64,000 nucleotides of DNA from Candidatus Zixiibacteriota bacterium (lineage in GTDB: Bacteria; RBG-13-66-14; B26-G2; WVWN01): NCBI GenBank assembly GCA_050117845.1, contig JASFLY010000003.1, positions 24,851 to 88,850 of the forward strand, given 5' to 3'. Numbering within the stretch: the stretch's first letter is position 1; the number at the start of each line of letters is the position of its first letter. Both the position numbers and the translations under genes were made by a program. Under the pieces are notes generated by a model. The model saw only the letters and a list, made by a program, of their open reading frames with translations. It ran no database searches and was not told the origin of the DNA. Positions 32,413 to 46,442 of the stretch are shown one piece after another.

Positions 32413-33577
32413 CCGCGTCTCCCTCGCTTTCGGCCGTACCGGCCTTCACGACGGCCTCGCCCCCTTCTTCCGCCGCTTTCTTCTCGTACTCCTCGAAAAC
32501 CTCGTCGGGTATCAATAAATCAGCGTCTTCCGGTATCTCGACGACTTTAAGCTTACTCCCGTCGACGATATGAATGGGCATCTTATCGCTCCCAAGGTAA
32601 TTGTAAGGATCGACCGGAACGCCGTTGATGCGGACCTCGTAGTGAAGGTGGCTGCCGGTCGCCAGGCCGGTAGCCCCGACGCGACCGATTATATCGTTCC
32701 GCTCGACCCGGTCCCCTTTCTTGACGTCGGCGGTCGACAGGTGGCCGTAGCGAGTCGTGAAACCGCCGCCGTGGTCCAGGAAAATTACCTGGCCGTAATA
32801 GGGATACGGCCCGGCCGTCGTTACTACGCCCTCCGCCGGGGCCCGTACGGCCGTTCCCAGAGGCGCCGCTATGTCGAGGCCCACGTGCACGCGGCCTCGC
32901 CACCGGCGGGCGCCGAAGTACGACGTTATGACGCCCGTGACAGGCGTCATGTCGGGCACGTCGGCCAAAAGCGACTTGCGCCGTTCCAACAAGCGCCGCA
33001 GGACCAGGAACTCCTTTTCGCAGCCGCGGCAATCCAGGTACAACTGGGACTCGTGCCGCCGGGCCTCTAGGCCGAAGCGTTCCTCGTCGAGACGATACAA
33101 GGCGTCAAAATAATCCGCTTCCGTTAACGCCGGCCCGCCGGAGCCCAATTCCTTGGCCGATTTCGCGTCCAGCTTGAACCCGGCCATTATTCTGAGGTCG
33201 GTGTAAAACTTGTCCAACCTCTTGAGCGCGGCGTCAAGCTCCTCGACGCGCAAGGCGTAATCGTCGCGTTCTTTCTGTACCTCGAAACTGAGTTTGGATA
33301 TAACCTCGTCGCGGCGCGCGATTTCGGTAGTAAGGTCGGCGTTCGTCGCCTCGAGGTCCCGGTTGCGCTCGAAGGTAGGGTTTACGGCCTTTTCCATGGC
33401 CCGGAAATTGTAATACAGGGTGACCGCAACACCCGTTACGGCCGCCGTTGTGCATAATATGAACGCCAGTCCCGCGACGATGATATGGCGATGGAGGTAT
33501 ATCGACCGGGATCGCCCCGAGGAATGCGAACATATCATCAACGTATAGTCTCTTTTAAACATATCGCTACCGTCCAA
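32405..33577 (-). CDS. M23 family metallopeptidase (TM anchor, coiled coil, LytM domain)
   Basis: …GVHVGLDIAAPLGTAVRAPAEGVV…VIFLDHGGGFTTRYGHLS…SHLHYEVRINGVPVDP. Confidence 0.8.
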   Translation of the reverse strand: MDGSDMFKRDYTLMICSHSSGRSRSIYLHRHIIVAGLAFILCTTAAVTGVAVTLYYNFRAMEKAVNPTFERNRDLEATNADLTTEIARRDEVISKLSFEVQKERDDYALRVEELDAALKRLDKFYTDLRIMAGFKLDAKSAKELGSGGPALTEADYFDALYRLDEERFGLEARRHESQLYLDCRGCEKEFLVLRRLLERRKSLLADVPDMTPVTGVITSYFGARRWRGRVHVGLDIAAPLGTAVRAPAEGVVTTAGPYPYYGQVIFLDHGGGFTTRYGHLSTADVKKGDRVERNDIIGRVGATGLATGSHLHYEVRINGVPVDPYNYLGSDKMPIHIVDGSKLKVVEIPEDADLLIPDEVFEEYEKKAAEEGGEAVVKAGTAESEGDADE

Positions 33578-33643
33578 TATAGGACGTAAATTCTACCAGA
33601 AAGCGGCCGTTAAATCAACGGCGCAGCCGGCCGCCGGCCGGTT

Positions 33644-33673
33644 AAAAAAACCCCGGCGCCGGGCCGGGGTTTG
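33644..33673 (-). terminator. Rho-independent terminator at the 3' end of the nuo operon
   Basis: On the + strand: aaaaaaaCCCCGGCgccggGCCGGGGttt. On the minus strand the hairpin is followed by TTTTTTT immediately after the nuoN stop. Confidence 0.55.
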
Positions 33674-33686
33674 GGATTCCTGGGAA

Positions 33687-35207
33687 TTATATTACGGGTA
33701 TGGCGAGAAGCAGAGGTTCGATAGCGCCTCGGGCCCAGGTTACGAGCAGGTGCGGCCAAACGCCGAGGAGAAGCGTGAACAGGACGCAAATCAACAGGAC
33801 CACCGCCGCCGCCGCGGGAACGCCCCGCACGTCCTCGCCCTCGCCTTTGTCGAAGTACATCGGCTTCAATATACGGGCGTAGAGGAAGAGCGCGGCCACA
33901 CTGGCCAGTATCGCGACGACCGCCAGGAAGATGTAGTTGCCGGCGACGAGCGCGGCCAGTATATAGAATTTCGCGAAGAACCCGGCGAGGGGCGGTATCC
34001 CGGCCAGGGCCAGAAGGAATACCGACAACGCGACGGCGAGCAGCGGGTGCCGCCGTCCCATGCCGGCGTAACTATCGAGGTCGTACTTGCCCGTAACGTG
34101 GCCTATGACGGCCACCGTGCCGAAGGCTCCGACGTTCATCGCCGCGTAAAGGGCGAGGTACACCAGAACCGACGAGAAGCCGATAGCCGTATCGGCGACG
34201 ATGCCGAGCAGAACGAAGCCGGCGTGGGCGATGGAGGAATACGCGAGTATGCGCCGCACGTCCTTTTGTACGATACCGATGACGACGCCGAAAACCATCG
34301 ACGCGATAGCGAGAGCCCCGAGGTATTTCGTCCAACCACCGTAGACCATGTTAAGCGGCCCGTGCAACGCCAGGACCAACCTCATTATAACGGCGAACCC
34401 GGAAGCCTTTGAAGCGACCGACAGGAACGCCGCTATCGGCGTGGGCGCGCCCTGATAGGCGTCGGGGGCCCACATGTGGAAGGGCACCGCCGAGATTTTA
34501 TAACCCAGGCCAACGAGGATAAGGGCGAACGCCAGGAAGATGAATCCGGCCGGCATCGTGGCCGCGGCACCGGTAGTCGGCGCCAGGACGGACAGGCAGC
34601 TCCCCGCCCCGCAGAACCATTCCACGTGGGGCAGGTTCTGCGCGATAACGCCCAGGTCCGTGGACCCGCTCATCCCGTAAAGGAGCGTGAATCCGAGCAG
34701 CATCACCGCCGAGGCCACGGCCCCATAGAGGAAATACTTGAGGCCCGCCTCCGCGGAGAAACGGTCGCCGCGGAGGTATCCGACCAGGACGTAGGAAAGG
34801 ATACTCGAGAACTCGATGGCGACGTAGATAAGGATGAGGTTGGTGGAGGACGCCATGAAGGCGACGGCGCAGGTAACGAGCATCAAAAGCGCGTAGTATT
34901 CCGGCCGGTCCCGGTCGCCGAGCGGCCCGTAGCCGGCCGACAACAGCGCCACCAGCGCGAGCGTCGCCGTGAATATCACCGTAAAGACCACGAAGAGGGG
35001 GTCGACGGTCAACGCCCCGAACCAGGAGGTCGCGGGTCGGACCCAGAGCCATATCGCGGCCGCTGCCGCCGCGGCGGCCACGACGACCGTGTAGTAGGGC
35101 GCCACGGCCCCGGCGAAGCGCCGCGACATAAGGCCGATGCAGACCAGCAACATCGCGCCGCCGGCGAGGATCATATGGGGCGAAAGGCTAAGCCAGTTGA
35201 ATTCCAT
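33687..35207 (-). CDS. nuoN: NADH-quinone oxidoreductase subunit N
   Basis: 506-aa polytopic antiporter-like subunit with NuoN-type sequence; last gene of the operon. Confidence 0.9.
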   Translation of the reverse strand: MEFNWLSLSPHMILAGGAMLLVCIGLMSRRFAGAVAPYYTVVVAAAAAAAAIWLWVRPATSWFGALTVDPLFVVFTVIFTATLALVALLSAGYGPLGDRDRPEYYALLMLVTCAVAFMASSTNLILIYVAIEFSSILSYVLVGYLRGDRFSAEAGLKYFLYGAVASAVMLLGFTLLYGMSGSTDLGVIAQNLPHVEWFCGAGSCLSVLAPTTGAAATMPAGFIFLAFALILVGLGYKISAVPFHMWAPDAYQGAPTPIAAFLSVASKASGFAVIMRLVLALHGPLNMVYGGWTKYLGALAIASMVFGVVIGIVQKDVRRILAYSSIAHAGFVLLGIVADTAIGFSSVLVYLALYAAMNVGAFGTVAVIGHVTGKYDLDSYAGMGRRHPLLAVALSVFLLALAGIPPLAGFFAKFYILAALVAGNYIFLAVVAILASVAALFLYARILKPMYFDKGEGEDVRGVPAAAAVVLLICVLFTLLLGVWPHLLVTWARGAIEPLLLAIPVI

Positions 35208-35220
35208 AATCGTACGCCGC

Positions 35221-36705
35221 TTACTTGAGCGCCATCATAAAGCGCGAGAGTTCGGACAGCGCCGGGTCCATTAGCTTTATCAGGATCGACGGGTAAACGC
35301 CGATAAGAACCATAAGTATCATGAGCGGGATGACGGTCACGAGTTCGCGGAAATTGATGTCCGGCAGGTCCGCCCAGCGCTCGTTCAACTTGCCCAGGAA
35401 CATCCGGCGGATGGTCCAGAGGAAATACCCCGCGGTGATGACGATGCCCGCGCCGGAGATTATAACCAGCACCGGGTATACGGGGAAGGCGCCGGCCAGA
35501 GACAGGAACTCGGACACGAAGCCGGACAGGCCGGGCAGGCCGAGCGAGGCGAACATCGTGAACGACATGATGCCGACGTAAACCGGTACGCGAACCGCCA
35601 GGCCGCTGAAGGCCTCGATTTGCCGGGTGTGGGCGCGGTCGTAAAGGACGCCCACCAAAAGGAACAACGCGCCCGTGATGATGCCGTGGTTGACCATCTG
35701 CATCATGGCGCCGTTGAGGCCCGTGGGCGTCATGGCCGCGGCGCCGAGCAGCACGAAGCCCATGTGGCCCACCGACGAGTACGCGATGAGCTTCTTCAGG
35801 TCCTTCTGCGCCATTGCGACCAGTGAGCCATATACGATGTTAATCACGCCCAATATCGCGAGGGGCCACGAGAACCAGTGCGCGCCCGTCGGCAATATGG
35901 GGTACGAGATGCGCAATAGGCCGTACCCGCCCATCTTCAGGAGGACGCCGGCCAGCAGGACCGATATCGCGGTCGGCGCCTCGACGTGGGCGTCGGGCAA
36001 CCACGTGTGGAACGGGAAGACAGGCACTTTAATCGCGAACCCCACGTATAAGGCCAGGAAGACGATAATCTGGAAGGTCCGGACGAAGTTCCCCTGCTGA
36101 CGCATGAGTTCCAGCATGTCGAAGGTGTGCGGCTGGGACGTGAAGTAGAGCGCCAGTATCCCCAGGAGCATTATTACGCTCCCCAGCAGGGTGTAAAGGA
36201 AGAACTTGATGGCGGCGTATTCGCGGCGCTGGCCGCCCCAGATGCCGATGAGGAAGTACATCGGCACCAGCATGACTTCCCAGAATACGTAGAACAGGAA
36301 GAGGTCCAGCGAGACGAACACGCCGAGCATTCCGGCCTCGAGCAGAAGGTACAGCGCGAAATATTCCTTAATGCGTTCTTTAATCGAAAAAGAGGCGATG
36401 GCGGCTAAAACCGATAACAGCGTCGTAAGGATAAACAGCGGCATCGAAAGGCCGTCGATGCCGACGTGGTAAAAGATGTTTATCGACGGAATCCACTGAT
36501 GGATCTCTTCGAATTGCATGGCGCCGGTGATGCCCGGGTCGAACGCCGTCAGGGCCCAAATGGAGAAGCCCAACGCCACGGCGGTAAACGCCACCGCGGT
36601 TGCCCGGATGCCGTTCACCCATCGTTCGGGCAACAGCAACACCACCACCATACCCACGACCGGGGTAAATACGGTTACGGTTAATATGGGAAACGCCATC
36701 GCCAT
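35221..36705 (-). CDS. nuoM: NADH-quinone oxidoreductase subunit M
   Basis: 494 aa; …FYVFWEVMLVPMYFLIGIWGG…HTWLPDAHVEAPTAISVLLAGVLLKMGGYG…. Confidence 0.9.
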   Translation of the reverse strand: MAMAFPILTVTVFTPVVGMVVVLLLPERWVNGIRATAVAFTAVALGFSIWALTAFDPGITGAMQFEEIHQWIPSINIFYHVGIDGLSMPLFILTTLLSVLAAIASFSIKERIKEYFALYLLLEAGMLGVFVSLDLFLFYVFWEVMLVPMYFLIGIWGGQRREYAAIKFFLYTLLGSVIMLLGILALYFTSQPHTFDMLELMRQQGNFVRTFQIIVFLALYVGFAIKVPVFPFHTWLPDAHVEAPTAISVLLAGVLLKMGGYGLLRISYPILPTGAHWFSWPLAILGVINIVYGSLVAMAQKDLKKLIAYSSVGHMGFVLLGAAAMTPTGLNGAMMQMVNHGIITGALFLLVGVLYDRAHTRQIEAFSGLAVRVPVYVGIMSFTMFASLGLPGLSGFVSEFLSLAGAFPVYPVLVIISGAGIVITAGYFLWTIRRMFLGKLNERWADLPDINFRELVTVIPLMILMVLIGVYPSILIKLMDPALSELSRFMMALK

Positions 36706-36739
36706 TGCCTCCTACAAGGAATCCTCGCGCCGGCCGCCC

Positions 36740-37333
36740 TTACGGCATACCGGCGAATTTCTCCAATTCTTCGGCCTCGGCCTGCGAGCCGTACGCCGGG
36801 ACCGTGCCCGGCGCCAGCGCGGAATAAACGTACGCGGTGCCGAGGCTTGTCTTCGCCTCGCCGAGCCGGCCCAAATGATATTGCGCCCGGCCCAGGAGGT
36901 GCAGCGCCGCTATCGCCCGGATGGTCTGCGGATAGGCGGCGACGAGCCGTTCGGTTTGCGACGCGACGGTTTCGTAATCGTCGGCCTGTAAGGCCGTTAC
37001 GATATCCTCGTACAGCGCGTCGAGTTCGGGCGGTTCGGGAGGTATCATTTCGAGGTAACGAGTGGCCTTCTCGTCGTCGCCCCGGGCGTCCTCGAGCTGG
37101 CTCAGGACGTAATAGGCCATAAAGCAACCGTCGTCTTCGGCGGCCGCGCGCTCGAAGTTGTCCCGGGCGCCCTTGACGTCGCCCTCGCTTATAGCGTCGT
37201 ACCCCGCCCAGAAATAAGCCCGGCACTCGGCGTCGGCCGAGATTATTTCGGGGAACGGTAATTCCTCGGCCGCGGCGAAACCGACGGCCAGAAACACGCC
37301 AAGTACGAGAGTCGTTAAGTTTCTCTTCAACAT
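36740..37333 (-). CDS. Secreted TPR-like protein (197 aa), hypothetical, embedded between nuoL and nuoM
   Basis: Signal peptide MLKRNLTTLVLGVFLAVGFAAA, then TPR-like helical repeats; 34 nt from nuoM and 4 nt from the upstream hypothetical. Confidence 0.55.
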   Translation of the reverse strand: MLKRNLTTLVLGVFLAVGFAAAEELPFPEIISADAECRAYFWAGYDAISEGDVKGARDNFERAAAEDDGCFMAYYVLSQLEDARGDDEKATRYLEMIPPEPPELDALYEDIVTALQADDYETVASQTERLVAAYPQTIRAIAALHLLGRAQYHLGRLGEAKTSLGTAYVYSALAPGTVPAYGSQAEAEELEKFAGMP

Positions 37334-37337
37334 ATTC

Positions 37338-37910
37338 TTATAGGGCTTTAACTCGGAAAAAAAACGCCGTTTCGCCCTCTCCCGTTTCGGCCGCTTTCAC
37401 GTCGAAGCCGTCGAACGACCAATCCTCGTCCTCTTTCGCGGCCGGAACCACGACGTGAGTCGCTCCGCGGGAAGCCGCCGCCGCCTCGAACCCGGCCATC
37501 AGCGCCTTGAGATCGTTATCGCCGACGCACGGGGCCGCCGCCGCGGCGAGGAGGTAAACCGGCCTTCCCTCTATTCCGGCCCCCTCAAGCACCGCCGGGG
37601 CCCAACCCCCGGTCGGCATATGCGCTCCCCCGAAAAGCCTCGGTCCCGGGGAGCGCCAGGGACGCCGTCGCTTCAGCCACTCCAACGGGGCGCCGGCGTC
37701 GGTCGTTCCGCAAATGACGCCCACGACTTCCGAACCCTCAAGCCCCGCCGTTCCCACGGTGAAGTCGCGATTGGCGTACGCGTCGTAAAACCGCTTAAGT
37801 ACGCCTCGGCCGCCCTTCCCCCGGTAACACCAAACCCGCCCTTCGCCATGGAGCTCCGCGGCTCCCCGGAGATGCGACCGATTTAGCGCGACCAGCCTCA
37901 TCTCCACCAT
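37338..37910 (-). CDS. Hypothetical protein (190 aa), possibly GNAT-like fold; embedded between nuoL and nuoM
   Basis: The ATG start abuts the nuoL stop, and the gene is tightly packed in the operon. The composition is partly Arg/Gly-rich, so the call rests mainly on operon packing. Confidence 0.4.
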   Translation of the reverse strand: MVEMRLVALNRSHLRGAAELHGEGRVWCYRGKGGRGVLKRFYDAYANRDFTVGTAGLEGSEVVGVICGTTDAGAPLEWLKRRRPWRSPGPRLFGGAHMPTGGWAPAVLEGAGIEGRPVYLLAAAAAPCVGDNDLKALMAGFEAAAASRGATHVVVPAAKEDEDWSFDGFDVKAAETGEGETAFFFRVKAL

Positions 37911-39842
37911 CTACAGCAGCACGAACGCGGCCACGAGAATGGCGACGACGCCGCACGCCAGGACTATTAAATATTCCTGAACGTAACCGGTCTGGACGCG
38001 CCGGAACACCTTGCCGAAGCCCTGCGTAATCCAACCGGCGAAGTTGACCAGGCCGTCGACGACGGCGAGGTCGAACCAGCCCTTGAAGCGGGCCCACAGG
38101 ATAGTCAATTTGGCCGAGCCGTTCACGGCCCCGTCTATGACATAGGTGTCGAAGAGGCCCCACATCCGGGCGAAAACGATAGTCCCCTTGACGAAGAGGA
38201 AGTTATACACCTCGTCGAAGTAGTATTTGTGTTCGAGGACGGTCGCCACCGGCCGGAAGGTCTTGTAAATCTTCTCCACCGGGAACAGCTTGCGTTTGTA
38301 CAAGGCCCAGGCGAGCGCGATGCCGCCGAGCGCCAGCACGAGCGACGCGCCCATCGCGGCGTAGTTTACGCCGTGGTGGCCGTGGCCGTGCATCTCGAAA
38401 CCGGCCCACCCGGCGAAACCGGGCCCCACGCCGGGGATGCCTATCCACCCCGCGACTACCGCGAGGACGCACAGGAACACCATCGGCCCGACCATGCTCA
38501 CGGGCGACTCGTGCGCGTGCGACGCCTTCTCCCGCGGCGAGCCGGTGAAGGTCATGAATATCGCCCGGAACATGTAGAACGCCGTCAGGAAGACGGTGAA
38601 GAACGCGGCGAATATCAGGTACCAGCCGCCGTGGCCGGCAACGGCCGAGAGTATTTCGTCCTTGGAGAAGAAGCCCGAAAGCGGCGGCACGCCCGCCAGC
38701 GCGAGCGACGCGACGACGAAGGTAATCGCCGTCCCCTTCATCTTGCCGCCCAGGCCCCCCATCTCGCGCATGTCGTTGGTGTGGCAGGCGTGGATGACGG
38801 AGCCGGCGCCGAGGAACAGCAGCGCCTTAAAGAAGGCGTGCGTGAAGAGGTGGAAGATGCCGGCGGCCGCGCTGCCGCAACCGAGCGCCAGCATCATGTA
38901 GCCGAGCTGGCTGATAGTGGAGTACGCCAGGACGCGTTTGATGTCCACCTGGACCACGGCGATGGTCGCCGCCATGAGGGCCGTCGTCGCGCCGACGTAG
39001 GCCACGACCTCCGAGGCCTGGCCGGCGGCCATGAATATGGGGAACGACCGCGCCACGAGGTAAACGCCGGCGGCCACCATCGTGGCGGCGTGGATGAGGG
39101 CGCTGACGGGCGTCGGGCCCTCCATCGCGTCGGGCAGCCAGACGTGTAGCGGGACCTGGGCCGATTTGCCGACGGCGCCCGCGAAGATGAGGAGCGCGAT
39201 GGCCGTTATCATCGCCGGGGCCAAGGCGCCGTGTTCCACCAGGCCGAAGACGCTCGCGAAGTGGAATGTCCCCGTAACCGCGAACATCAGCAGTATGCCG
39301 ATAAGGAGGCCCACGTCGCCGAGACGCGTGGTGATGAAGGCCTTCATGCCGGCGTTGGCCGCCTCCGGCTTTTCGAACCAGAAGCCGATGAGGAGATAGG
39401 AGGTAAGGCCGACCAGTTCCCAGAAGATGAACGCCTGGAGGTAGTTGTTCGCGAGGACCAGGCCCAGCATCGCCATCGAGAAGAGGTTGAGGTAGGAGAA
39501 GTAGCGGCCGTAGAGCTTGTCGCCCTTCATGTATCCGGTCGAGTAAATGTGGACCATGAAGGACACGGTGGCGACGACGACCGCCATGATGCCGCCGAAG
39601 CGGTCCAACTGGTAACCGAAGGCCAACGTCACGTCGCCGAGCTGGAGCCACGTGAACGAGAAGTCGCCGCCCTCGCCCAACAGAATACGGACGAGCAGCG
39701 TCACGGCCGCGGCGAACGATACTCCCAGCGCCGCAATGGGCGCGATGGCCGCTTTCGGTTCGCCGAGTCGCTTGCCCCAGAACACGGCGATGAGGAACCC
39801 GACGAGCGGGGCGAAGTTAACTATTAATGCCAGCCAGACCAT
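37911..39842 (-). CDS. nuoL: NADH-quinone oxidoreductase subunit L
   Basis: 643 aa; …HLFTHAFFKALLFLGAGSVIHA…, with the long C-terminal extension typical of NuoL. Confidence 0.9.
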   Translation of the reverse strand: MVWLALIVNFAPLVGFLIAVFWGKRLGEPKAAIAPIAALGVSFAAAVTLLVRILLGEGGDFSFTWLQLGDVTLAFGYQLDRFGGIMAVVVATVSFMVHIYSTGYMKGDKLYGRYFSYLNLFSMAMLGLVLANNYLQAFIFWELVGLTSYLLIGFWFEKPEAANAGMKAFITTRLGDVGLLIGILLMFAVTGTFHFASVFGLVEHGALAPAMITAIALLIFAGAVGKSAQVPLHVWLPDAMEGPTPVSALIHAATMVAAGVYLVARSFPIFMAAGQASEVVAYVGATTALMAATIAVVQVDIKRVLAYSTISQLGYMMLALGCGSAAAGIFHLFTHAFFKALLFLGAGSVIHACHTNDMREMGGLGGKMKGTAITFVVASLALAGVPPLSGFFSKDEILSAVAGHGGWYLIFAAFFTVFLTAFYMFRAIFMTFTGSPREKASHAHESPVSMVGPMVFLCVLAVVAGWIGIPGVGPGFAGWAGFEMHGHGHHGVNYAAMGASLVLALGGIALAWALYKRKLFPVEKIYKTFRPVATVLEHKYYFDEVYNFLFVKGTIVFARMWGLFDTYVIDGAVNGSAKLTILWARFKGWFDLAVVDGLVNFAGWITQGFGKVFRRVQTGYVQEYLIVLACGVVAILVAAFVLL

Positions 39843-39845
39843 ATC

Positions 39846-40454
39846 TTATTCGTTCTCCAGGGGGGCCTCGGCCCCGCCTTCGGGGGTATTGTTATCCTGT
39901 CCCGGATGGATTCTTAAAGACCGTTCAAACGACCTTATCGGTTCCGAGGTATCGCCCTCCGGCGCGATTGGGCGGAAAACCTCGACCCGATATAGCGTTC
40001 CGTTAACCGTCAAGAATAACGCGGTTACCCGGCGCGGCTCCTCCCCCTTCGTTATATAATCCACTCGAACGCCGTCCTGAGCGCCTATCCGGGCGAGGTC
40101 TTCTTCGGTTAAAAGCCCGGCCCGGGCCTCGAACGCTTTATCTATCCCTCGGCGCCGCTGGTACAGGCCGGCCGCTATAACCGGCGTCTCGTACGTCACG
40201 TTTCGGGCGGTGATTAAGAACTCCAGCCCCGCGTAAGGCCCGTCGGCCCAAAATAAACGGAGAACGCGGGTCGTACTACCCGGCGCCGGAGCCGGCGTTT
40301 CCTCTTCGTAACCGGCCGGCACGTCGAACGAAACGCCCAGATCGTCGCTTCGGTACGGTGGGGTTTGTTCCACGGCGTACGCCGGGGCGCAAGGCGCCGT
40401 AACCGCACACAAAGCCGCGGCCGCCGCGGCCGTCTTTATCCACCCACCCGTCAA
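39846..40454 (-). CDS. Secreted hypothetical protein (202 aa) embedded between nuoK and nuoL
   Basis: Signal peptide MTGGWIKTAAAAAALCAVTAPCAPAYA; 3-nt gaps to nuoK and to nuoL; no domain recognised. Confidence 0.5.
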   Translation of the reverse strand: MTGGWIKTAAAAAALCAVTAPCAPAYAVEQTPPYRSDDLGVSFDVPAGYEEETPAPAPGSTTRVLRLFWADGPYAGLEFLITARNVTYETPVIAAGLYQRRRGIDKAFEARAGLLTEEDLARIGAQDGVRVDYITKGEEPRRVTALFLTVNGTLYRVEVFRPIAPEGDTSEPIRSFERSLRIHPGQDNNTPEGGAEAPLENE

Positions 40455-40457
40455 ACC

Positions 40458-40769
40458 TTAACCGCGTAACTCGCGGAGGTCGTCAATGGCGACGGTCCCC
40501 CGCGACCGGTATATTGCCAATATCAACGCCAGCCCCACGACCGCCTCGGCCGCGGCGACGGTAATAACGAAAATCGAGAACACCTGGCCGTCCAGCATCG
40601 CCGGCCCGTAAATCCGGTCGAACGTAACCAGCGCCACGTTAACGGCGTTCAGCATCAGCTCGATGCCCATGAGTATGCCGATGGCGTTGCGCCGGGTCAG
40701 GGCGACCAGCAGGCCGATGCCGAAGAGGAGCAGCGAAACACCCAGGAAATGAAGCGGCGTGATAGCCAT
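40458..40769 (-). CDS. nuoK: NADH-quinone oxidoreductase subunit K
   Basis: 103 aa, 3 TM helices; …GILMGIELMLNAVNVALV…. Confidence 0.9.
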   Translation of the reverse strand: MAITPLHFLGVSLLLFGIGLLVALTRRNAIGILMGIELMLNAVNVALVTFDRIYGPAMLDGQVFSIFVITVAAAEAVVGLALILAIYRSRGTVAIDDLRELRG

Positions 40770-41278
40770 TATTTCCGCTCCTCCTTACGGGCCAGGACGA
40801 TAGCGCCGATGAGAGCGCCCAGAAGCAAGAGAGAGATTACCTCGAAAGGCAACAGGTACGTGGAGAGGAGGGCCGAGGCCAACGCCTCGATGGCCCCCTC
40901 GCCGTCCGGTACGGCCGCCAACGGCGGCAGGTCCACCTTCCACATAACCAGGGCCGACGCGGCCGCGAGCGCCAGGAGGACCGGTATCGCGGGCAAAATC
41001 GCCCGGGTGTACTGCTTGACCCGGCGGGAAGTTATCCGCTGGGTCAACATTACGGCGAAAAGTATCAGCACGGCGATGGCGCCCACGTAAATCAGAACCT
41101 GGACGCCCGCCAGGAACTCCGCCCCCAAAAGGACGAAGAGCGAGGCCACCGCGCACAGCGCCAGTATCAAACTCAGGCCGGCGTGGAAAAGGTTGCGCAG
41201 GAACAGCACGCCCAGCGCGCTCAGGAGCGCGACGCCCGCGACGCCGTAAAAAGCTATTATATAAATCCAATCGGTCAT
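40769..41278 (-). CDS. nuoJ: NADH-quinone oxidoreductase subunit J
   Basis: 169 aa polytopic protein with NuoJ-like sequence. Confidence 0.85.
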   Translation of the reverse strand: MTDWIYIIAFYGVAGVALLSALGVLFLRNLFHAGLSLILALCAVASLFVLLGAEFLAGVQVLIYVGAIAVLILFAVMLTQRITSRRVKQYTRAILPAIPVLLALAAASALVMWKVDLPPLAAVPDGEGAIEALASALLSTYLLPFEVISLLLLGALIGAIVLARKEERK

Positions 41279-41299
41279 TTTCTCTATACCCGGGCGGTT

Positions 41300-41830
41300 T
41301 TAAACGTCGTCGGGTTCCATCCATTCCACTACGTAACGGTTAACTTCGGCGTTTTCGGCTCGATTGTCCAGGACCGTAACTCGCACGTTTAAGGCCCCGA
41401 GACCCGTGAAGCCCGCCGTTAAAACGCCCCGAATGAATTCGACGCTTCTAATAATCGAGGAATCTTTAATAACCAAACGGCCCGGCCTGTATTCTTCGAC
41501 GACGTATTCCCCGGTCCCCGGTCCCCGCACGAAATGGGGATATACGCTCGCTACCTTCTCGGCGAAAGCCCCCGTCGACGTTATACCCAATTCCCTAAGT
41601 TCGGACGTTACTACGTTGGTCAACTCGTTGCCCATAATAACCAACGCCTGCGGCGATATATGTTCGAGTAAGTATTCTAACGTCGCGACGTACGGCTCCC
41701 CTTCATACCACCCGTTCGGGTCGAACTCCCTTTCGAAATATCCCCCCAGGTCGGGCCTTACGATATCCGCGATATGGGGAAATACGTTTTTTATACCCTG
41801 GTATAAAGCGCCCCGGACTTCGATTGCCAT
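41300..41830 (-). CDS. Paralog 1 of a tandem family of ~175-aa cytoplasmic proteins of unknown function
   Basis: MAIEVRGALYQGIKNVFPHIADIVRPDLGGYFEREFDPNGWYEGEPYVATLEYLLEHISPQALVIMGNELTNV…FAEKVASVYPHFVRGPGTGEYVVEEYRPGRLVIKD…LNVRVTVLDNRAENAEVNRYVVEWMEPDDV. The ATG is directly preceded by GGAGG; the track extends the ORF to a GTG at 41881. Confidence 0.6.
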   Translation of the reverse strand: MAIEVRGALYQGIKNVFPHIADIVRPDLGGYFEREFDPNGWYEGEPYVATLEYLLEHISPQALVIMGNELTNVVTSELRELGITSTGAFAEKVASVYPHFVRGPGTGEYVVEEYRPGRLVIKDSSIIRSVEFIRGVLTAGFTGLGALNVRVTVLDNRAENAEVNRYVVEWMEPDDV

Positions 41831-41973
41831 CCTCCTCGCTGCGTGTTTACCGTAACCGTCCCCCCGCCGGAACCGGCCCACGCCGACGTACGCCCGGGCT
41901 ATTAAAATATCACTTGTTACACAATACTACCTCCCGCCTCTATCCGCGCGTTACCGTAAAAATCTCGACGCTA

Positions 41974-42504
41974 TTAATCGTCGTCGGTTTCCAGCCACTC
42001 CACGAGGTACCTATTCGCTTCCGCACCCGAAGCCCGGTTGTCCAGCAGGATAACCCGCACGTTCAAAGCCCCGAAAACGGAAAAAGTCGCCGCCAGAACT
42101 CCCCTCGTAAATTCGGCGTTCGAAATAATCGAAGACTCCCTCACCACCATACGGCCCGGACGATATTCCTCAACGAGCCATTCACCTGTTTCGGGGCCCC
42201 TTACGAATCGGGGATAGACCTGACCTACTTTTTCCGCAAACGTTCTGATCGACGTTATCCCGAGGTGCTTGAGTTCCTCGGCTATTATGCTAGTTAATTC
42301 CTTCCCCAAAATAACTATCGCTTGAGGCGATATGCGTTAGTATAAATACTCCAACGCCGCTATGTAATACTCCCCTTCATACCACGCGGCCGGGTTGATT
42401 TCACCCTCGAAATGTTTTCCCAACTCGGGCGGTAAAATTTCCGCGATATCGGGAAAAACATTCTTCACACTCTGTAGCAAAACCCCCAAGACCTCGATAG
42501 CGGG
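41974..42504 (-). pseudogene. Paralog 2 of the same family, with an in-frame TAA
   Basis: The C-terminal 111 aa are a track ORF (MGKELTSIIAEEL…YLVEWLETDDD). The upstream in-frame translation reads …PAIEVLGVLLQSVKNVFPDIAEILPPELGKHFEGEINPAAWYEGEYYIAALEYLY*RISPQAIVILGKELTS…, where the conserved LEH is replaced by Y-stop-R (TAA at ~42337–42339). No ATG precedes IEV. Confidence 0.5.
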
Positions 42505-42649
42505 CCACCTCGCTGTTCGTTTACTTCTTCATCCGCTCCAGCAAGTATCGGCATGTCGCACCGGCTCAAGCCCAGCCGTAACACCCCCTATACGCTTCCC
42601 TATCACCCCCCGTGTTTCCCGCCGCCGATTCCGCCCCCACCGAACGCTT

Positions 42650-43180
42650 TTACTTCCCGTCGGCCTCGATCCATTCCACCAGCAACCGGTTATACTCCGC
42701 GCCCTTCGCCCTTTCGTTAAGAACCGTGATCCGGATATTTACGGCGCCGAACACGTTAAACAAAGCTTTTAATACACCCAGTACGAAACTAATATTCCAG
42801 ACTATTCCGGTTTCCCTTACTACCATTCTTCCGGGACGGTACTCCTCCGGAAACCACCCGCCGGCCCCCGGGCCCCGTACGAATTGGGGATAAAGTTCGG
42901 CCACTTTCTCCGCGAAGTCCCGCGTCGTTTTAATCCCCGTCGCCCACATCATCGCCTTCCCCACTTCGGTCAACTCGTTCCCCAACAACACCATTGCCTG
43001 CGGCGAAATGTGTTCCAGCAAGTATTCCACCGCCGCTACGTACGGTTCACCCTCATACCACGCGGCCGGGTCGATTTCTCTTTCGAAGTATTCCCCGAGT
43101 TCCGGCGGCACTATTTCCGCGATATGAGGGAATACGTTCTTTATTGCCTGGTAGAATACGCCCCGTACTTCGATTTCTGC
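42650..43180 (-). CDS. Paralog 3 of the same family; the conserved N-terminus lacks a canonical start codon
   Basis: Full in-frame similarity runs from AEIEVRGVFYQAIKNVFPHIAEIVPPELGEYFEREIDPAAWYEGEPYVAAVEYLLEHISPQAMVLLGNELTEV… to …EYNRLLVEWIEADGK. The track ORF starts at an internal GTG (VPPELG). The paralog-4 stop lies immediately upstream, and an aaggggg SD-like element sits 5 nt before an ATC codon. Confidence 0.5.
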   Translation of the reverse strand, partial: AEIEVRGVFYQAIKNVFPHIAEIVPPELGEYFEREIDPAAWYEGEPYVAAVEYLLEHISPQAMVLLGNELTEVGKAMMWATGIKTTRDFAEKVAELYPQFVRGPGAGGWFPEEYRPGRMVVRETGIVWNISFVLGVLKALFNVFGAVNIRITVLNERAKGAEYNRLLVEWIEADGK

Positions 43181-43195
43181 CCCCTTTCGCGTGCG

Positions 43196-43720
43196 CTACG
43201 CCATTATCCACTCCATCAGGTAACGGTCGGCCCCGCCTTCCCCGCTCCGCGTATCGATCATTTCGACGCGGATGTTATAAGCTCCCGTAGATTCCAAAGC
43301 CCGCCGCACTATTCCGACGCAAATATCGGGCTGTGCGAAGTCGCCGTCGTAACGCAATATCGACCGGCCTTCGCGGTATTCCTCCAACGTCCAGCCGCCG
43401 CCCTCTCCCCTAACGAATTCGCGGTATACGTCGTTAACCTTTTCCATGAAGTTACGCGGCGTATTAATCCCCAACTCCCGCAACTGCGACTCGAAAAGGT
43501 CGATAAGTCTCGTGCCCACCAGGGCGTTAACGGTCGGGGACATGTGCTTAATTAAATACTCCCGCGCTCGCAGGTACAAGTCCGCCGAATACCAACCGTC
43601 GGCCTTTACTTCCCGGAACAACTTGGCGAGCTCCGGGTCGACGACGTCCCCTAGATGCGGGAATACCCCTTTCACCATAAGGTATAAGACTCCGCGGACT
43701 TCGATTTTGGGCGTCATCAT
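43196..43720 (-). CDS. Paralog 4 (most divergent) of the same family
   Basis: MMTPKIEVRGVLYLMVKGVFPHLGDVVDPELAKLFREVKADGWYSADLYLRAREYLIKHMSPTVNALVGTRLIDL…FMEKVNDVYREFVRGEGGGWTLEEYREGRSILRYD…YNIRVEMIDTRSGEGGADRYLMEWIMA; RBS ggggag 8 nt upstream of ATGATG. Confidence 0.6.
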   Translation of the reverse strand: MMTPKIEVRGVLYLMVKGVFPHLGDVVDPELAKLFREVKADGWYSADLYLRAREYLIKHMSPTVNALVGTRLIDLFESQLRELGINTPRNFMEKVNDVYREFVRGEGGGWTLEEYREGRSILRYDGDFAQPDICVGIVRRALESTGAYNIRVEMIDTRSGEGGADRYLMEWIMA

Positions 43721-43814
43721 CGCGATAGCTCCCCAGGTCGATAGTACCGACGCACGATACCAGGCCGCCTCGCCTCTCCGCTCCTATTCCCGCTCCGGCG
43801 TCCCCCCTTACCCC

Positions 43815-44276
43815 CTATTTCTTAAACTCCGGCTCGAGCTGCCGGGATAACAGCTTCGGTATATCGTACACCAATTCGCGTTTATCGTAAACCGATATCT
43901 CGTATTCCGGAATCATCGCCAGCGCCTCGAAGTTGCACACCTCGACGCAGAGGCCGCAATAGATGCACAGGCCGAGGTCGACGACGTAATCGTCGACGAT
44001 GAAGCCCTTGACGCCTTCTTCCTTGTGGCGGCGGAGCGTGATGCACGCGGCGGGACAAACCCGCAGACACTGGCCGCACGCCGTACACTTGTGGCCGCCG
44101 TCGTCGCCGGGCACCATCGCGAGGCGTCCCCGGAACCGCGGCCACTGCTCGAAGCGCTTCTTCGGATACTGAATAGTAACCGAACGCCGGAGCATGTGTT
44201 TGGTCGTCGTGACCATGCCGATAAAGAGCCACCACGTACCTTTGATTACCCGACCTATGGCGCGAAAAATAATCAT
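43815..44276 (-). CDS. nuoI: NADH-quinone oxidoreductase subunit I (2x[4Fe-4S] ferredoxin)
   Basis: Two CxxCxxCxxxCP motifs (CTACGQCLRVCP and CIYCGLCVEVCN). Confidence 0.9.
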   Translation of the reverse strand: MIIFRAIGRVIKGTWWLFIGMVTTTKHMLRRSVTIQYPKKRFEQWPRFRGRLAMVPGDDGGHKCTACGQCLRVCPAACITLRRHKEEGVKGFIVDDYVVDLGLCIYCGLCVEVCNFEALAMIPEYEISVYDKRELVYDIPKLLSRQLEPEFKK

Positions 44277-44280
44277 ACGT

Positions 44281-45309
44281 CTACATGAGGACTATTATTA
44301 AGCCCGTTATTATCAAATTCAGGAACGCGAGCGGAAGCAGGAACTTCCACGCGAACGACATCAACTGGTCCACTCGAATCCGGGGATACGTCCACCGGAA
44401 GAACATAAGCAGAAGGACGATGGCGAACGACTTGAGCATGAACCAAACTTCGCCCGGCAATACCGGCCCGTGCCACCCGCCCAGGAACAGCGTCGTCGCG
44501 ATGGCCGCGATGAGGAACATATTGGCGAACTCGGCGAGGAAGAACATCGCGAACTTCATGCCCGAGTATTCCAGGTTGAAGCCGGCGATAATCTCCTGCT
44601 CCGCTTCCGGGATGTCGAACGGCGTCCGGTTCACCTCCGCCGTGGCCGCGATGACGTAAATAACGAACGCCAGCGGCTGATAGACGATAAACCATATCGA
44701 CTTCTGCGCGTCGACGATGGCGCCCATCTTCATCGTCCCGGCGAGCATTATGACGCCCAGCACCGAAAGCACCAGCGGCACCTCGTACGATACGAGCTGG
44801 GCCGCGGAGCGGAAGCCGCCGATTATCGAATACTTCGAGCCGGACGCCCATCCCCCGCAGATGATGGCGATGACGTTGATGGTCGTAATCGCAAAGAGGA
44901 AAAGGACGCCGATATTGAGGTCGCGAATAATGGCGCCGTCGCCGAAGGGAATGACGACGAAAGCGACGACGGTGGGCGCGAAGGCCAGGAACGGGGCGAT
45001 GTTGAATACCGGCCTGTCGCAATCGCGGGGCGTGGTGTCCTCTTTCTGGACCAGCTTCAGCGCGTCCGCGACGGTCTGGATGGAGCCGTGCCAGCCCGTG
45101 CGCATGGGCCCCAGCCGCTGTTGGATGTGGGCCGAGACCTTTCGGGTGAGCCAGATGAGGAAGAGGACGAGGAGCGCGATGAAGGCCGCAATCAGAATGG
45201 CGTGCACGACCATCTGGGCCGCCGGCACGAACCAGCCCGGCAGGCCGTAACGGGTTACGACGCCGATCCACCATTCGTTGAGCCAGGATAGTATGGGGTG
45301 AATTATCAT
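44281..45309 (-). CDS. nuoH: NADH-quinone oxidoreductase subunit H
   Basis: 342 aa; …IQQRLGPMRTGWHGSIQTVADALKLVQKED… with NuoH/ND1 motifs. Confidence 0.9.
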   Translation of the reverse strand: MIIHPILSWLNEWWIGVVTRYGLPGWFVPAAQMVVHAILIAAFIALLVLFLIWLTRKVSAHIQQRLGPMRTGWHGSIQTVADALKLVQKEDTTPRDCDRPVFNIAPFLAFAPTVVAFVVIPFGDGAIIRDLNIGVLFLFAITTINVIAIICGGWASGSKYSIIGGFRSAAQLVSYEVPLVLSVLGVIMLAGTMKMGAIVDAQKSIWFIVYQPLAFVIYVIAATAEVNRTPFDIPEAEQEIIAGFNLEYSGMKFAMFFLAEFANMFLIAAIATTLFLGGWHGPVLPGEVWFMLKSFAIVLLLMFFRWTYPRIRVDQLMSFAWKFLLPLAFLNLIITGLIIVLM

Positions 45310-45326
45310 AACGTACGCGCCTGCGC

Positions 45327-46442
45327 CTAGCGGTCCACGTCCGGCAGAATAACGTCCAGCGAGCCGAAGATGGGCACGATGTCGGCCAGGTAAACGCCCC
45401 GCAACAGTTCCGCGATCATCGAGAGGTTGTTGAACGACGGCGTCCGGAGCTTGTAACGGTACGGCTTATTTTCGCCTTCGGAAACGAGGTACAGGCCGTA
45501 GTCGCCGCGGGGCGACTCGACGCGGACGTAAACCTCGCCCGCCGGGACCTTGGGGAACTTCGATATCTTCTCGGCCTGAACCGGCCCTTCCGGCAGGCCC
45601 TCCATACATCGTCTTATAAGGTCGTGCGAGGCGCGCATCTCGAGAATGCGGGCCTGGTAGCGGTCGTAGCAGTCGCCGTTCTTCAAAACTACCGGCTTGT
45701 AGCCGACCTCGCCGTACGCCTCGTACGGGAGATTGGACCGCACGTCGAAGTCCACGCCGGAGGCCCGGAGGTTCGGGCCGGTCCAGCCGTAGTTGACGGC
45801 CCGGGCGCCTTCCACCGTGCCGATGTTCTTGGTCCGGGCCAGGAATATCTCGTTCTCGTTGAGGATGCGGTCGTAGTCGTCCAGCCGGCCGGGGAACACC
45901 TTGATGAACTCCTCCACCATGGTGAAGAAGGAATCCGGCAGGTCCTCCGCGACGCCGCCGAACCGGGCGTAGTTGAAGGTCATCCGCTGACCGGTCGTCA
46001 TCTCCAACAGGTCCATCGCCAGCTCGCGCTCGCGGAAGCCGTAGAGGAAGGGCGTCACGGCGCCCAGGTCGAGCGCGAAGACGCCGAAGTAAATGGCGTG
46101 GGAGGCTATTCGGCACAGCTCCATCGTTATGGTCCGGATGTACTGCGCCCGCCGCGGCACCTCTATCTCCATCAGCCGCTCGACCGCCTGGCAATGGGCG
46201 ACGCCGCAGAAGATGGAACTTAAGTAGTCAATGCGGTCCGCCATCGGCAGGAACTGGATGTAGAGGCGGTTCTCCGCCATCTTCTCCATTGAACGATGGA
46301 GGAAACCGATGTGCGGCTCGCAGTCGACGACGCGCTCGCCGTCCATCGTGAGGACCATGCGGAAGACGCCGTGCGTCGACGGGTGCTGCGGGCCGACGTT
46401 GACCTCGAACTCTTCCGTGGTGTATATCGTATCGGTGGCCAT
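45327..46442 (-). CDS. nuoD: NADH-quinone oxidoreductase subunit D
   Basis: …FEVNVGPQHPSTHGVFRMVLTMDGERVVDCEPHIGFLHRSMEKMAE…. Confidence 0.9.
   Translation of the reverse strand: MATDTIYTTEEFEVNVGPQHPSTHGVFRMVLTMDGERVVDCEPHIGFLHRSMEKMAENRLYIQFLPMADRIDYLSSIFCGVAHCQAVERLMEIEVPRRAQYIRTITMELCRIASHAIYFGVFALDLGAVTPFLYGFRERELAMDLLEMTTGQRMTFNYARFGGVAEDLPDSFFTMVEEFIKVFPGRLDDYDRILNENEIFLARTKNIGTVEGARAVNYGWTGPNLRASGVDFDVRSNLPYEAYGEVGYKPVVLKNGDCYDRYQARILEMRASHDLIRRCMEGLPEGPVQAEKISKFPKVPAGEVYVRVESPRGDYGLYLVSEGENKPYRYKLRTPSFNNLSMIAELLRGVYLADIVPIFGSLDVILPDVDR

Follow-up and report, generated by a model that had tools for sequence, protein, structure and literature searches.

The DNA analysed here, below called the window, is a 64-kb stretch (64,000 nucleotides) from an uncultured bacterium whose clade resembles Coatesbacteria; among its relatives, some MAGs carry the label Zixibacteria. 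Its minus strand holds a complex I-like operon of 11 genes, nuoABCDHI-JK-L-MN, from which nuoEFG are absent. Two genes that do not belong to nuo lie between nuoL, which encodes an antiporter-like subunit of 643 aa (37911..39842, minus strand; NCBIfam NF005141, 695 bits, cut-off 556), and nuoM (35221..36705, minus strand; 494 aa; TIGR01972 NDH_I_M, 599.7 bits, cut-off 263.8). The nuoL stop codon TAG (37911-37913) directly abuts the first of them, an open frame of 190 codons that we call ORF190 (37338..37910, minus strand; 0 nt from the nuoL stop), and the coding strand here reads TAG and immediately ATGGTGGAGATG. After a spacer of 4 nt, as read from the sequence (37334-37337, minus strand), follows TPR197, a gene of 197 codons (36740..37333, minus strand) recognized by Pfam TPR profiles, homologs and an AF2 model. 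A further 34 nt (36706..36739, minus strand), which carry the AGGAGG ribosome-binding site of nuoM, separate it from nuoM, and nuoN (33687..35207, minus strand; 506 aa; TIGR01770, 378 bits, cut-off 332.6) is the operon's final gene. A preliminary description of the locus had already placed two non-nuo genes between nuoL and nuoM; its coordinates and its 0-, 4- and 34-nt junctions agree with ours, and we add the strand, which is minus for all genes.

Consensus-only scans of the minus strand from 36706 to 37910, with a promoter type that may not be the host's, found no promoter-like or terminator-like site, and a terminator plus promoter would not fit into the spacer of only 34 nt between TPR197 and nuoM. 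A promoter and terminator of its own for the TPR gene, which according to the preliminary description would argue against an accessory role, is hence not among the minus-strand sites of this interval. 3' of nuoN, the scan returned weak terminator-like hairpins (33665-33619) and then a promoter-like site (33618-33590). Stops and starts are 0 and 4 nt apart in the window, and homologous loci feature ATGA overlaps and a conserved 9-nt G-rich linker. In relatives, nuoN is followed by co-directional, packed housekeeping genes unrelated to nuo (M23 peptidase, ThiDN, PdxJ, AcpS). Since unrelated genes are packed there too and TPR genes are common in the genome, tight packing says little by itself.

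As originally described, the operon is interrupted at three positions, nuoI/J, nuoK/L and nuoL/M. The second insertion site, between nuoK and nuoL, holds orf202 (39846..40454, minus strand), a signal-peptide protein that matched no family in Pfam or NCBIfam. Every clade locus that retains the K-L junction has an orf202 homolog there, with 35-42% identity, and a remote homolog is present in the sister-lineage locus L015. The third site, between nuoI and nuoJ, contains four tandem DUF2378-like paralogs (41300..43720, minus strand), which tblastn identified as four full-length copies at 43196-43720, 42650-43177, 41974-42525 and 41300-41881. The first copy matches Pfam DUF2378 with 23.6 bits (cut-off 22.2), and the third has an in-frame stop in its translation (42337-42339). 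Of the seven accessory genes counted previously, six are thus intact, and the seventh is this interrupted paralog.

Open frames of similar size arise by chance in DNA of 63.5% GC, as in the window, where two spurious frames, 181 aa long (36681-37226, minus strand) and 143 aa long (37455-37886, plus strand), overlap the two genes; ORF length alone is therefore uninformative. ORF190 could accordingly be such a chance frame and no gene at all, and its GC content at the three codon positions (0.71/0.54/0.74) is indeed less polarised than in the nuo genes (about 0.6/0.4/0.85-0.9). The likelihood of this is nevertheless negligible. ORF190 has 35 homologs of constant length (178-190 aa; 42-100% identity) with invariant motifs and 32 invariant columns in the family alignment, its AF2 model has a pLDDT of 89 and a recognised fold, and its family aligns with GNAT proteins in hhalign (E 4e-24). 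On this evidence the chance ORF was rejected, and the lack of coding signal or conservation that the preliminary description had considered for ORF190 was not found. Conservation and not ORF length hence identifies both inserts as real non-nuo genes. The closest available DNA is ~55-59% identical at the protein level, so that synonymous sites are saturated. Homolog junctions point to the second ATG, at 37901, as the likely true start of ORF190, which would give a protein of 187 aa.

Predicted folds and family motifs of TPR197 and ORF190

By curated profiles, TPR197 is a tetratricopeptide repeat protein: Pfam TPR_19 matches with 36.8 bits (cut-off 25) and TPR_2 with 29.9 bits (cut-off 27). Its family search gave 44 matches, among them 42 full-length members of about 180-200 aa with 48-91% identity. 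The AF2 model (pLDDT 87.5) features nine helices, eight of them paired in four TPR hairpins and one forming a C-terminal cap. In Foldseek, the model retrieved consensus TPRs, MamA, YbgF and PilF at low TM (about 0.3), that is, generic TPR proteins and no informative specific relative, and a profile search against all PDB chains found YbgF (2xev, E 1.4e-5) and designed consensus TPRs only. Residues 1-22 (37268..37333, minus strand; MLKRNLTTLVLGVFLAVGFAAA / EE) have the basic n-region, hydrophobic core and A-x-A site of a signal peptide. Homologs have an equivalent, variable hydrophobic N-terminus, and AF2 assigns these residues in TPR197 a pLDDT <50. Judged by these N-terminal features, TPR197 is predicted to be exported with a Sec-type signal peptide, and the signal-peptide TPR-like protein of 197 aa proposed before is hence well described. 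Two cysteines, Cys37 (37223-37225, minus strand) and Cys70 (37124-37126, minus strand), are near-invariant in the family alignments and probably form a periplasmic disulfide. Residues 173-180 (36794..36817, minus strand) form the motif LAPGTVPA, in which six of the eight positions are invariant family-wide, A174 is near-invariant and V178 varies conservatively; the alignments include the orthologs of the sister-lineage loci L015 and L016. LAPGTxPA is thus a candidate partner-binding segment.

ORF190 is cytoplasmic and has no signal peptide. Because neither Pfam nor NCBIfam contained a matching family at E<=1, Acetyltransf_1 included, we used fold prediction and an exhaustive HMM search. In Foldseek against the PDB, all 50 matches listed for the model were GNAT-fold proteins or domains (probability 0.99-1.00, TM 0.43-0.57), and the best of them, every one a GNAT, reached a TM of about 0.5-0.57. 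The family profile found no sequence at E<=1 among all PDB chains. The exhaustive HMM search returned its own small family only and then, weakly, bona fide GNATs of ~200 aa (E 1e-6 to 1e-3), remote relatives that themselves match Pfam Acetyltransf_1 at 1e-8 to 1e-22. With this uncharacterised GNAT subfamily, the ORF190 family aligned over its full length (hhalign 99.6%, E 4e-24, 184 columns). Fold model and detectable homology thus place ORF190 in the GNAT superfamily. In NCBIfam, the remote relatives gave generic, sub-threshold matches only (RimI, ArsN2), from which no substrate can be inferred for ORF190.

In contrast to canonical GNATs, ORF190 does not have the acetyl-CoA motif A (Q/R-x-x-G-x-G/A, after beta4). 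The position, residues 130-135 (37506..37523, minus strand), reads G-D-N-D-L-K, and in the alignment with canonical relatives it is an acidic, variable and poorly conserved loop throughout the family. None of 25 family members begins the motif with R or Q, and in place of the key Gly at its fourth position 15 of them have D, while 4 have G. Furthermore, helix alpha4 has a deletion of five residues by which the A..FY segment is gone. Loss of motif A by itself does not prove that cofactor binding is lost; from the acidic loop together with the shortened alpha4, ORF190 is probably a non-catalytic GNAT. Where the preliminary description listed a hypothetical protein of 190 aa, we hence find a genuine gene for a divergent GNAT-fold protein, with a start that probably makes it 187 aa long. 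Its family has invariant motifs of its own, CYRGK, FYDAYANRD and RRPWRS. The last is part of a basic, Gly-rich insertion between beta3 and beta4 (residues 78-103; 37602..37679, minus strand) with the pattern W-L-x-x-R-R-P-W-R-S ... G-G ... G-G-W, in which W78, L79, R82, R83, W85, R86, S87, G94, G95, G101, G102 and W103 are invariant or nearly so. The insertion was modelled as three short helices (pLDDT 76-88) and is a candidate docking surface.

Other functions are conceivable for each protein. ORF190 might still transfer acyl groups, either with a cofactor site that departs from the canonical one or from another donor, e.g., acyl-ACP; its substrate near the membrane arm might be a Nuo subunit, a lipid or a molecule related to quinones. 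In agreement with this, the GNAT fold is wholly kept in the model, H13, H21, Y42, R82, R148, G149 and G168, which the canonical relatives share, are invariant, the acyl-ACP-using GNAT-fold enzyme FeeM (2g0b) is among the Foldseek matches, and the conserved basic patch would suit an acidic carrier. The replaced motif A, the alpha4 deletion and the absence of ORF190 matches to any acetyltransferase profile, whichever threshold was applied, nevertheless make such an activity unlikely. TPR197, in turn, might be a general cell-envelope TPR protein of CpoB/YbgF, BamD or PilF type that serves an unrelated periplasmic process and is merely co-expressed with nuo. Its weak best matches do fall on the YbgF TPR domain (TIGR02795; 2xev), and in JGI annotation some homologs go under the names PilF or TolA-binding protein. 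Yet these matches lie far below family cut-offs and cover one or two repeats (for TIGR02795, 30.3 bits against a cut-off of 90.1, residues 106-165 only), and TPR197 has neither the N-terminal coiled coil of YbgF nor a lipobox. Moreover, the invariant motifs LLSQ, YPQT and LAPGTxPA are unique to the nuo-linked family, and tol-pal, bam or pil genes never adjoin its members in the retrieved loci. We hence regard this function as very improbable; the assignments to YbgF/CpoB, BamD and PilF were dismissed on sub-cut-off scores and nuo neighbours.

Conservation of position and order of gain

With ORF190, TPR197 and NuoM as three separate queries, we retrieved and compared ~30 related loci. Wherever a retrieved locus spans the junction, nuoM is immediately preceded by the TPR gene. 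ORF190 directly follows nuoL in all loci with NuoM of at least 81% identity and the junction present, and it is confined to this narrow clade. In three sister-lineage loci, L015, L016 and L032, NuoM is 69-71% identical and the TPR gene is present, whereas ORF190 is absent. The TPR protein keeps its slot upstream of nuoM in these loci at identities of 46%, 30% and 43%, respectively. Elsewhere the operon varies, with 0 to 4 copies in the I-J array and with nuoA/B missing upstream in L015 and L016. In more distant 11-gene operons nuoL and nuoM are adjacent. In none of the retrieved loci did either family occur outside nuo operons, and the neighbours of TPR197 were always nuoL or ORF190 and nuoM. 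The inserts are thus lineage-specific, as proposed before, and conserved in position. As the majority of loci belong to a single, rather narrow clade (NuoM 81-92% identical), part of this synteny is mere inheritance.

The sister loci with TPR gene but without ORF190 and the distant operons with adjacent nuoL and nuoM show that the TPR gene, which is also the more widely conserved of the two inserts, was gained before ORF190. The order of gain is TPR first, followed by genes of the orf202 and GNAT types, and the DUF2378 array is variable. In sister phyla, TPR genes were recruited independently into other nuo junctions (L017, L019). Nine NuoL and NuoM sequences from TPR-bearing and TPR-lacking lineages contained no group-specific indel as a docking site; between the two groups, 23 substitutions in NuoL and 9 in NuoM are fixed, a comparison that is confounded by phylogeny.

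A possible role at the membrane arm of complex I

We see an even chance that ORF190 and TPR197 serve the NuoL/M module, as accessory subunits or as assembly factors specific to this lineage. This link to the antiporter-like module is drawn from gene position, tight junctions and co-occurrence only, and physical association of the two proteins with complex I is what we infer from it. Both genes would share one transcript with those of the membrane-arm subunits. TPR197 would be exported by its Sec-type signal peptide and fold in the periplasm to a four-hairpin solenoid, probably pinned by the Cys37-Cys70 disulfide. With its groove, the LAPGTxPA segment or both, it might then grip NuoL or NuoM at a periplasmic loop or terminus, and TPR197 could in this way serve in the periplasm as a clamp, or as a chaperone of assembly, that joins the distal antiporter-like modules. 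ORF190 would stay in the cytoplasm. As a descendant of the ~200-aa GNAT acetyltransferase subfamily, it is most likely a non-catalytic GNAT put to new use as a structural or regulatory accessory protein, and its conserved basic insertion would be the surface by which it binds NuoL/M on the cytoplasmic side.

The main rival explanation, possible although we would not expect it, is that both genes are functional passengers unrelated to complex I, which were inserted once and then kept by vertical inheritance and by handy co-transcription in a compact genome. The restriction of ORF190 to the clade with NuoM of at least 81% identity would fit such a history, as would the packing of unrelated co-directional genes downstream of nuoN in all relatives, the frequency of TPR genes in the window and the NuoL and NuoM sequences without docking-site indels. 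[quoted passage not shown] 2). As in the window, non-nuo frames there lie amid canonical complex I genes of a single operon. Paracoccus denitrificans likewise has URFs among its nqo genes; the intermixed ORFs of R. capsulatus are reported to be dispensable for the enzyme, and alphaproteobacterial ORFs of this kind are not known from the purified enzyme. Unlike the window, however, these two organisms belong to another phylum and have a 14-subunit enzyme, and the intermixed proteins are unrelated. Moreover, passengers would hardly explain why the TPR gene keeps its exact slot while its identity falls to 30-46% and the operon is rearranged elsewhere, why neither family was found outside nuo operons in the retrieved loci, why starts and stops overlap or abut, and why TPR genes were independently recruited to other nuo junctions in sister phyla. 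If passengers they are, the locus would be an ordinary operon quirk of one candidate phylum.

An accessory role of ORF190 and TPR197 would have parallels in known enzymes. In mycobacteria, the gene MSMEG_2064 adjoins the nuo operon. Its product, an orphan response regulator, and Nqo16 of Thermus are lineage-specific proteins of reused fold that are proven subunits of bacterial complex I; for MSMEG_2064 (/ Rv3143), cryo-EM established the subunit, with the phospho-acceptor Asp buried against NuoB and not used normally (PMC10068793). Like these two, ORF190 is a lineage-restricted soluble protein that seems to have borrowed its fold from another system. MSMEG_2064, in contrast, has a receiver fold and binds NuoB/A/C/I at the arm junction and not distal NuoL/M, and its association was directly seen by cryo-EM, whereas that of ORF190 is deduced. 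Relative to the GNAT superfamily, ORF190 has the same fold and remote homology, without motif A, with a shortened alpha4 and without a curated profile match. Its Foldseek matches include a known pseudo-acetyltransferase domain, namely the HAT-like domain of O-GlcNAcase (6r45).

For TPR197, TPR assembly factors on the periplasmic or lumenal side of bioenergetic membrane complexes, such as photosystem II, come closest. Slr0151 is a TPR protein of this kind (PMC4853703). Like PratA, Slr0151 and YbgF/CpoB, TPR197 would be a short solenoid of TPR repeats that works, or is suggested to work, at the outside of a membrane complex; the client complexes are others, and the similarities to TPR197 stay below family thresholds. 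PratA is a periplasmic TPR assembly factor of photosystem II. A literature search found no TPR protein as complex I subunit or assembly factor, nor does a solved structure match TPR197 in this capacity, and a search for Coatesbacteria together with complex I gave nothing relevant. In a profile search of the whole PDB, neither TPR197 nor ORF190 matched a solved complex I or NDH chain. On the outer face of the membrane arm, supernumerary subunits are known from mitochondria, i.e., the CHCH proteins NDUFB7/B10/S5/A8 on the IMS side, and from the chloroplast NDH with its lumenal PnsL proteins. Enzyme-derived mitochondrial subunits are NDUFA9, with an SDR fold, and NDUFA10, with a nucleoside-kinase fold. 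These organellar enzymes thus combine disulfide-stabilised helical proteins on the non-cytoplasmic face with former enzymes on the matrix or cytoplasmic face, both of which coat the antiporter-like arm and make it more stable. We would regard this as a functional analogy only, as they have no sequence or fold kinship to TPR197 or ORF190.

Bacterial complex I usually is treated as a minimal core enzyme. To our knowledge, the few proven lineage-specific bacterial subunits, i.e., Thermus Nqo15/16, MSMEG_2064 and alphaproteobacterial homologs of mitochondrial subunits, are all on the cytoplasmic side. If the two proteins bind, no accessory protein of a bacterial complex I would have been placed in the periplasm before TPR197, and the antiporter-like module would gain its first partners of TPR and GNAT fold. 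ORF190 would then add a clean case of an enzyme fold put to non-catalytic use, and the enzyme would offer a simple system to study why membrane arms attract extra subunits, be it for stability, assembly order or regulation. We may speculate, with clear reservation, that this 11-subunit bacterial complex I has independently built a supernumerary shell on both faces of its membrane arm. At NuoL/NuoM, such a shell would include TPR197, disulfide-bonded in the periplasm, and ORF190 as a GNAT pseudoenzyme in the cytoplasm; periplasmic orf202 and the DUF2378-like proteins would belong to it as well. It would be a prokaryotic parallel to the gain of subunits from reused enzyme folds in mitochondrial and chloroplast complex I. 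With the order of gene gains dated, comparative genomics can follow step by step how the complex grew.

Operon context and gene status

All genes of the nuo operon lie on the minus strand of the window, in the order nuoA (47572-47937), nuoB (47000-47581), nuoC (about 46458-47000), nuoD (45327-46442), nuoH (44281-45309), nuoI (43815-44276), four DUF2378-like paralogs (41300-43720), nuoJ (40769-41278), nuoK (40458-40769), orf202 (39846-40454), nuoL (37911-39842), the 190-codon ORF190 (37338-37910), the 197-codon TPR197 (36740-37333), nuoM (35221-36705) and nuoN (33687-35207); nuoL, nuoM and nuoN score above the curated NCBIfam cut-offs. Since nuoE, nuoF and nuoG were found neither in the operon nor among the larger window ORFs scanned, the operon is of the 11-subunit (NUO11) type. 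The mechanical ORF containing nuoC (46458-47474, minus strand) reaches 338 aa and overlaps nuoB because no in-frame stop precedes nuoC; as NuoC of relatives measures 161-175 aa, the true start is probably near 46950-47000. Upstream of nuoA, a divergent radical-SAM/SPASM gene (48017-49195, plus strand), kept at the same position in the related loci L003 and L020, is followed by two PMT_2-type glycosyltransferase-like membrane proteins (49318-52610, plus strand).

Directly 3' of the nuoL stop TAG stands ATGGTGGAGATG, ORF190 and TPR197 lie 4 nt apart, and nuoM is preceded by a 34-nt spacer with AGGAGG, exactly as the preliminary description had it. That description had named a promoter and terminator of the TPR gene's own as an argument against its reading. 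Our consensus scan over 33000-48500, which assumes sigma-70-type signals, found no promoter-like or terminator-like site on the minus strand anywhere from the nuoL stop to the nuoM start, and spacers of 0, 4 and 34 nt leave no room for either. In homologs, the stop codon of the ORF190-type gene shares the sequence ATGA with the start codon of the TPR gene. Between nuoN and the M23 peptidase gene, the stretch 33590-33665 (minus strand) contains two weak terminator-like hairpins and one promoter-like site (TTGATT-17-TAGAAT, preceded by a TG), which suggests that the nuo transcript ends there. In all relatives, however, a conserved co-directional block runs on past this point, comprising M23, ThiDN, CvpA, PHP, PdxJ, AcpS and the CCA enzyme.

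At the 63.5% GC of the window DNA, ORF length is no evidence for a gene, and spurious ORFs (181 and 143 aa) also run across the ORF190/TPR197 region. GC by codon position in ORF190 (0.71/0.54/0.74) is coding-like, weaker than in the nuo genes. It is conservation that settles the gene status of both. ORF190 has 35 homologs of 178-190 aa (42-100% identity), with 32 invariant columns in the family alignment and the motifs LNRSH, CYRGK, FYDAYANRD, TVGTA, CGxTD, WLxxRRPWRS, GG..GGW and ASRGA. TPR197 has 44 matches, 42 of them full-length family members of about 180-200 aa (48-91% identity). AlphaFold2 models of both are confident (pLDDT 89.0 for ORF190, 87.5 for TPR197). With its homologs and predicted fold, ORF190 hence escapes the earlier reservation that it might carry no coding or conservation signal. 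In homologs, the nuoL TAG is followed by a G-rich 9-nt linker (GGGGGCGGG) and a TTG or GTG start, with which the second ATG of ORF190 (37901, giving 187 aa) aligns; judging from this alignment, the second ATG probably is the real start.

Occurrence in related loci and order of insertion

Related loci were gathered in three independent ways, via ORF190, TPR197 and NuoM, and mapped by tblastn. All clade loci (NuoM 81-92% identical to the window) that span the relevant junctions have the order K-orf202-L-ORF190-TPR-M-N-M23 peptidase, and fragmentary ones show the matching part. In these loci, identity to the window proteins is 34-59% for ORF190, 48-69% for TPR197 and about 72-90% for the flanking core subunits; for ORF190 it rises to 76% in P0002, a homolog known only as a protein. 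NCBI labels the related MAGs 'Candidatus Coatesbacteria', 'Candidatus Zixiibacteriota' or 'bacterium', and CP070633.1, a closed 2.35-Mb Coatesbacteria genome, is arranged in the same way.

In the sister lineages L015, L016 and L032 (NuoM 69-71%), a TPR ortholog (46%, 30% and 43% identical, respectively) lies directly upstream of nuoM and ORF190 is absent, and in L017, L018 and L019 (NuoM 65-66%) nuoL adjoins nuoM. From this it follows that the insertion of the TPR gene came first and that ORF190 later arrived in the gap between it and nuoL. In the retrieved loci, members of both families occurred only within nuo operons. Other candidate-phylum relatives have different TPR genes, at other nuo junctions. 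L017, labelled Coatesbacteria (NuoM 66%), encodes two exported TPR proteins at the nuoD-nuoH junction (4044-5493), and in L019 (Eisenbacteria, CP070702.1) the nuoK-nuoL junction contains the gene of a TPR protein of 289 aa that lacks a signal peptide (6088-6957). NUO11 operons therefore seem to have recruited TPR genes repeatedly.

Folds and possible roles of ORF190 and TPR197

ORF190 matched no Pfam, NCBIfam or PDB sequence profile, and the PDB matches listed for its model were all GNAT-fold structures (probability 0.99-1.00, TM 0.43-0.57). When 1.84 billion representative proteins were searched exhaustively with its profile, seven proteins, all of its own small family, came up at E<1e-10, followed by weak matches (E 1e-6 to 1e-3) that are bona fide GNATs of about 200 aa (Pfam Acetyltransf_1, 1e-8 to 1e-22). 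Profile-profile comparison of the family with this GNAT group gave a probability of 99.6% (E 4e-24) across the full length, and ORF190 thus is derived from a GNAT subfamily. Where its GNAT relatives align motif A (QGRGIA, RGTGLA and similar), the family has a variable acidic loop (GDNDLK, GEDDVG, TEDGLA); R/Q at position 1 occurs in 0 of 25 members, and the key Gly is Asp in 15 of the 25. The alpha4 segment N..A..FY..GF is five residues shorter than in the relatives, and the N-terminal residues and a basic, Gly-rich beta3-beta4 insertion are strongly conserved. ORF190 is therefore likely, as far as its residues tell, a pseudoenzyme without canonical acetyl-CoA binding; that it is an active, non-canonical acyltransferase seems improbable to us. 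As it has neither signal peptide nor hydrophobic segment, it presumably is cytoplasmic.

TPR197 scores above the Pfam cut-offs for TPR_19 and TPR_2, and its model shows four helical hairpins and a C-terminal helix. What it matches in fold and in sequence is of a generic kind (consensus TPRs, MamA, YbgF, PilF), all far under any family threshold. Its N-terminus, MLKRN-LTTLVLGVFLAVGF-AAA|EE, looks like a Sec signal peptide and has an equivalent hydrophobic, sequence-variable counterpart in homologs; residues 1-22 were left unmodelled by AF2 (pLDDT <50). These features point to export. C37 and C70, near-invariant and at the N-terminal ends of neighbouring A-helices, would fit a putative periplasmic disulfide. 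The most striking family-specific feature is the invariant C-terminal segment S-x-L-A-P-G-T-x-P-A, kept even in the most distant orthologs. We consider it very improbable that TPR197 is a general envelope TPR protein. P0078, a 193-aa predicted protein on a 1217-bp ENA contig, matches about a quarter of TPR197 at 80% identity and carries ISL3-transposase N-terminal domains (PF14690, PF13542); it may represent an IS element in or beside the TPR gene of one population, or a chimeric gene call.

Two conserved proteins are thus apparently encoded within, and translated from, the message for the distal membrane arm, one an exported TPR scaffold, the other a presumably cytoplasmic GNAT fold without the cofactor motif. 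TPR197 might bind NuoL or NuoM at a periplasmic loop or terminus, serving as a clamp or chaperone for joining the antiporter-like modules, and ORF190 could dock on the cytoplasmic side as an accessory protein without catalytic activity. We give even chances to both being accessory subunits or assembly factors of complex I, as proposed earlier, a reading that our results support in part: the architecture behind that proposal is real, conserved and datable, whereas the functional link to complex I is circumstantial. Its chief rival, that both are passenger genes kept by descent, we rate as rather unlikely. The narrow clade, the unrelated housekeeping genes packed right behind nuoN and the abundance of TPR genes in this genome speak for passengers, as do the ORFs known to be interspersed with the nuo genes of R. 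capsulatus (PMC4758237). In a comparison of nine sequences, NuoL and NuoM of TPR-bearing lineages showed no specific docking-site indel.

Non-nuo genes in nuo operons and lineage-specific complex I subunits are already known kinds. MSMEG_2064 of mycobacteria, an orphan response regulator with its phospho-acceptor Asp buried against NuoB, and Thermus Nqo16 are proven, lineage-specific bacterial subunits with reused folds (PMC10068793). They set a precedent, whereas for ORF190 and TPR197 we infer the association. The two families at hand, one a putative GNAT pseudoenzyme linked to nuo, the other a periplasmic TPR protein with a fixed place upstream of nuoM, are not described before; our literature search found nothing on them, and PDB profile searches matched no solved structure to either. 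A periplasmic accessory protein, if true, would be new for bacterial complex I.

Other insertion sites

Of the seven accessory genes counted in the preliminary description, six are intact. The seventh, the third DUF2378-like paralog (41974-42525, minus strand), aligns over its full length in tblastn but is interrupted by an in-frame stop at 42337-42339 (LEYLY*RISPQ versus LEYLLEHISPQ in its paralogs); it is a recent pseudogene unless the stop stems from an error in sequencing or assembly. Between nuoI and nuoJ, such copies number none in L003, L007 and L008, one in L001, L010 and L013, two in L005 and L020, one full and one truncated in L012, and four in the window; the array expands and contracts inside the operon among close relatives. 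GC of these genes is 0.53-0.56, versus about 0.6-0.64 in the rest of the operon.

The protein encoded by orf202, between nuoK and nuoL, has a signal-peptide-like N-terminus, matched no known family and is only 30-42% identical within the clade. Sister lineages have two orf202-type genes at this junction (L015, 6153-7142; L016, 5551-6500), of which L015 6630-7142 is a remote homolog (27% identity, E 5e-6). The low-GC clusters of L015 (1-5316) and L016 (1-4697) start at nuoC, with no nuoA or nuoB upstream, and the gaps between nuoD, nuoH and nuoI contain tiny predicted ORFs (37-51 aa). In L016, nuoL is in two pieces (495 aa and 147 aa); a frameshift, a stop or faulty assembly may account for the split.
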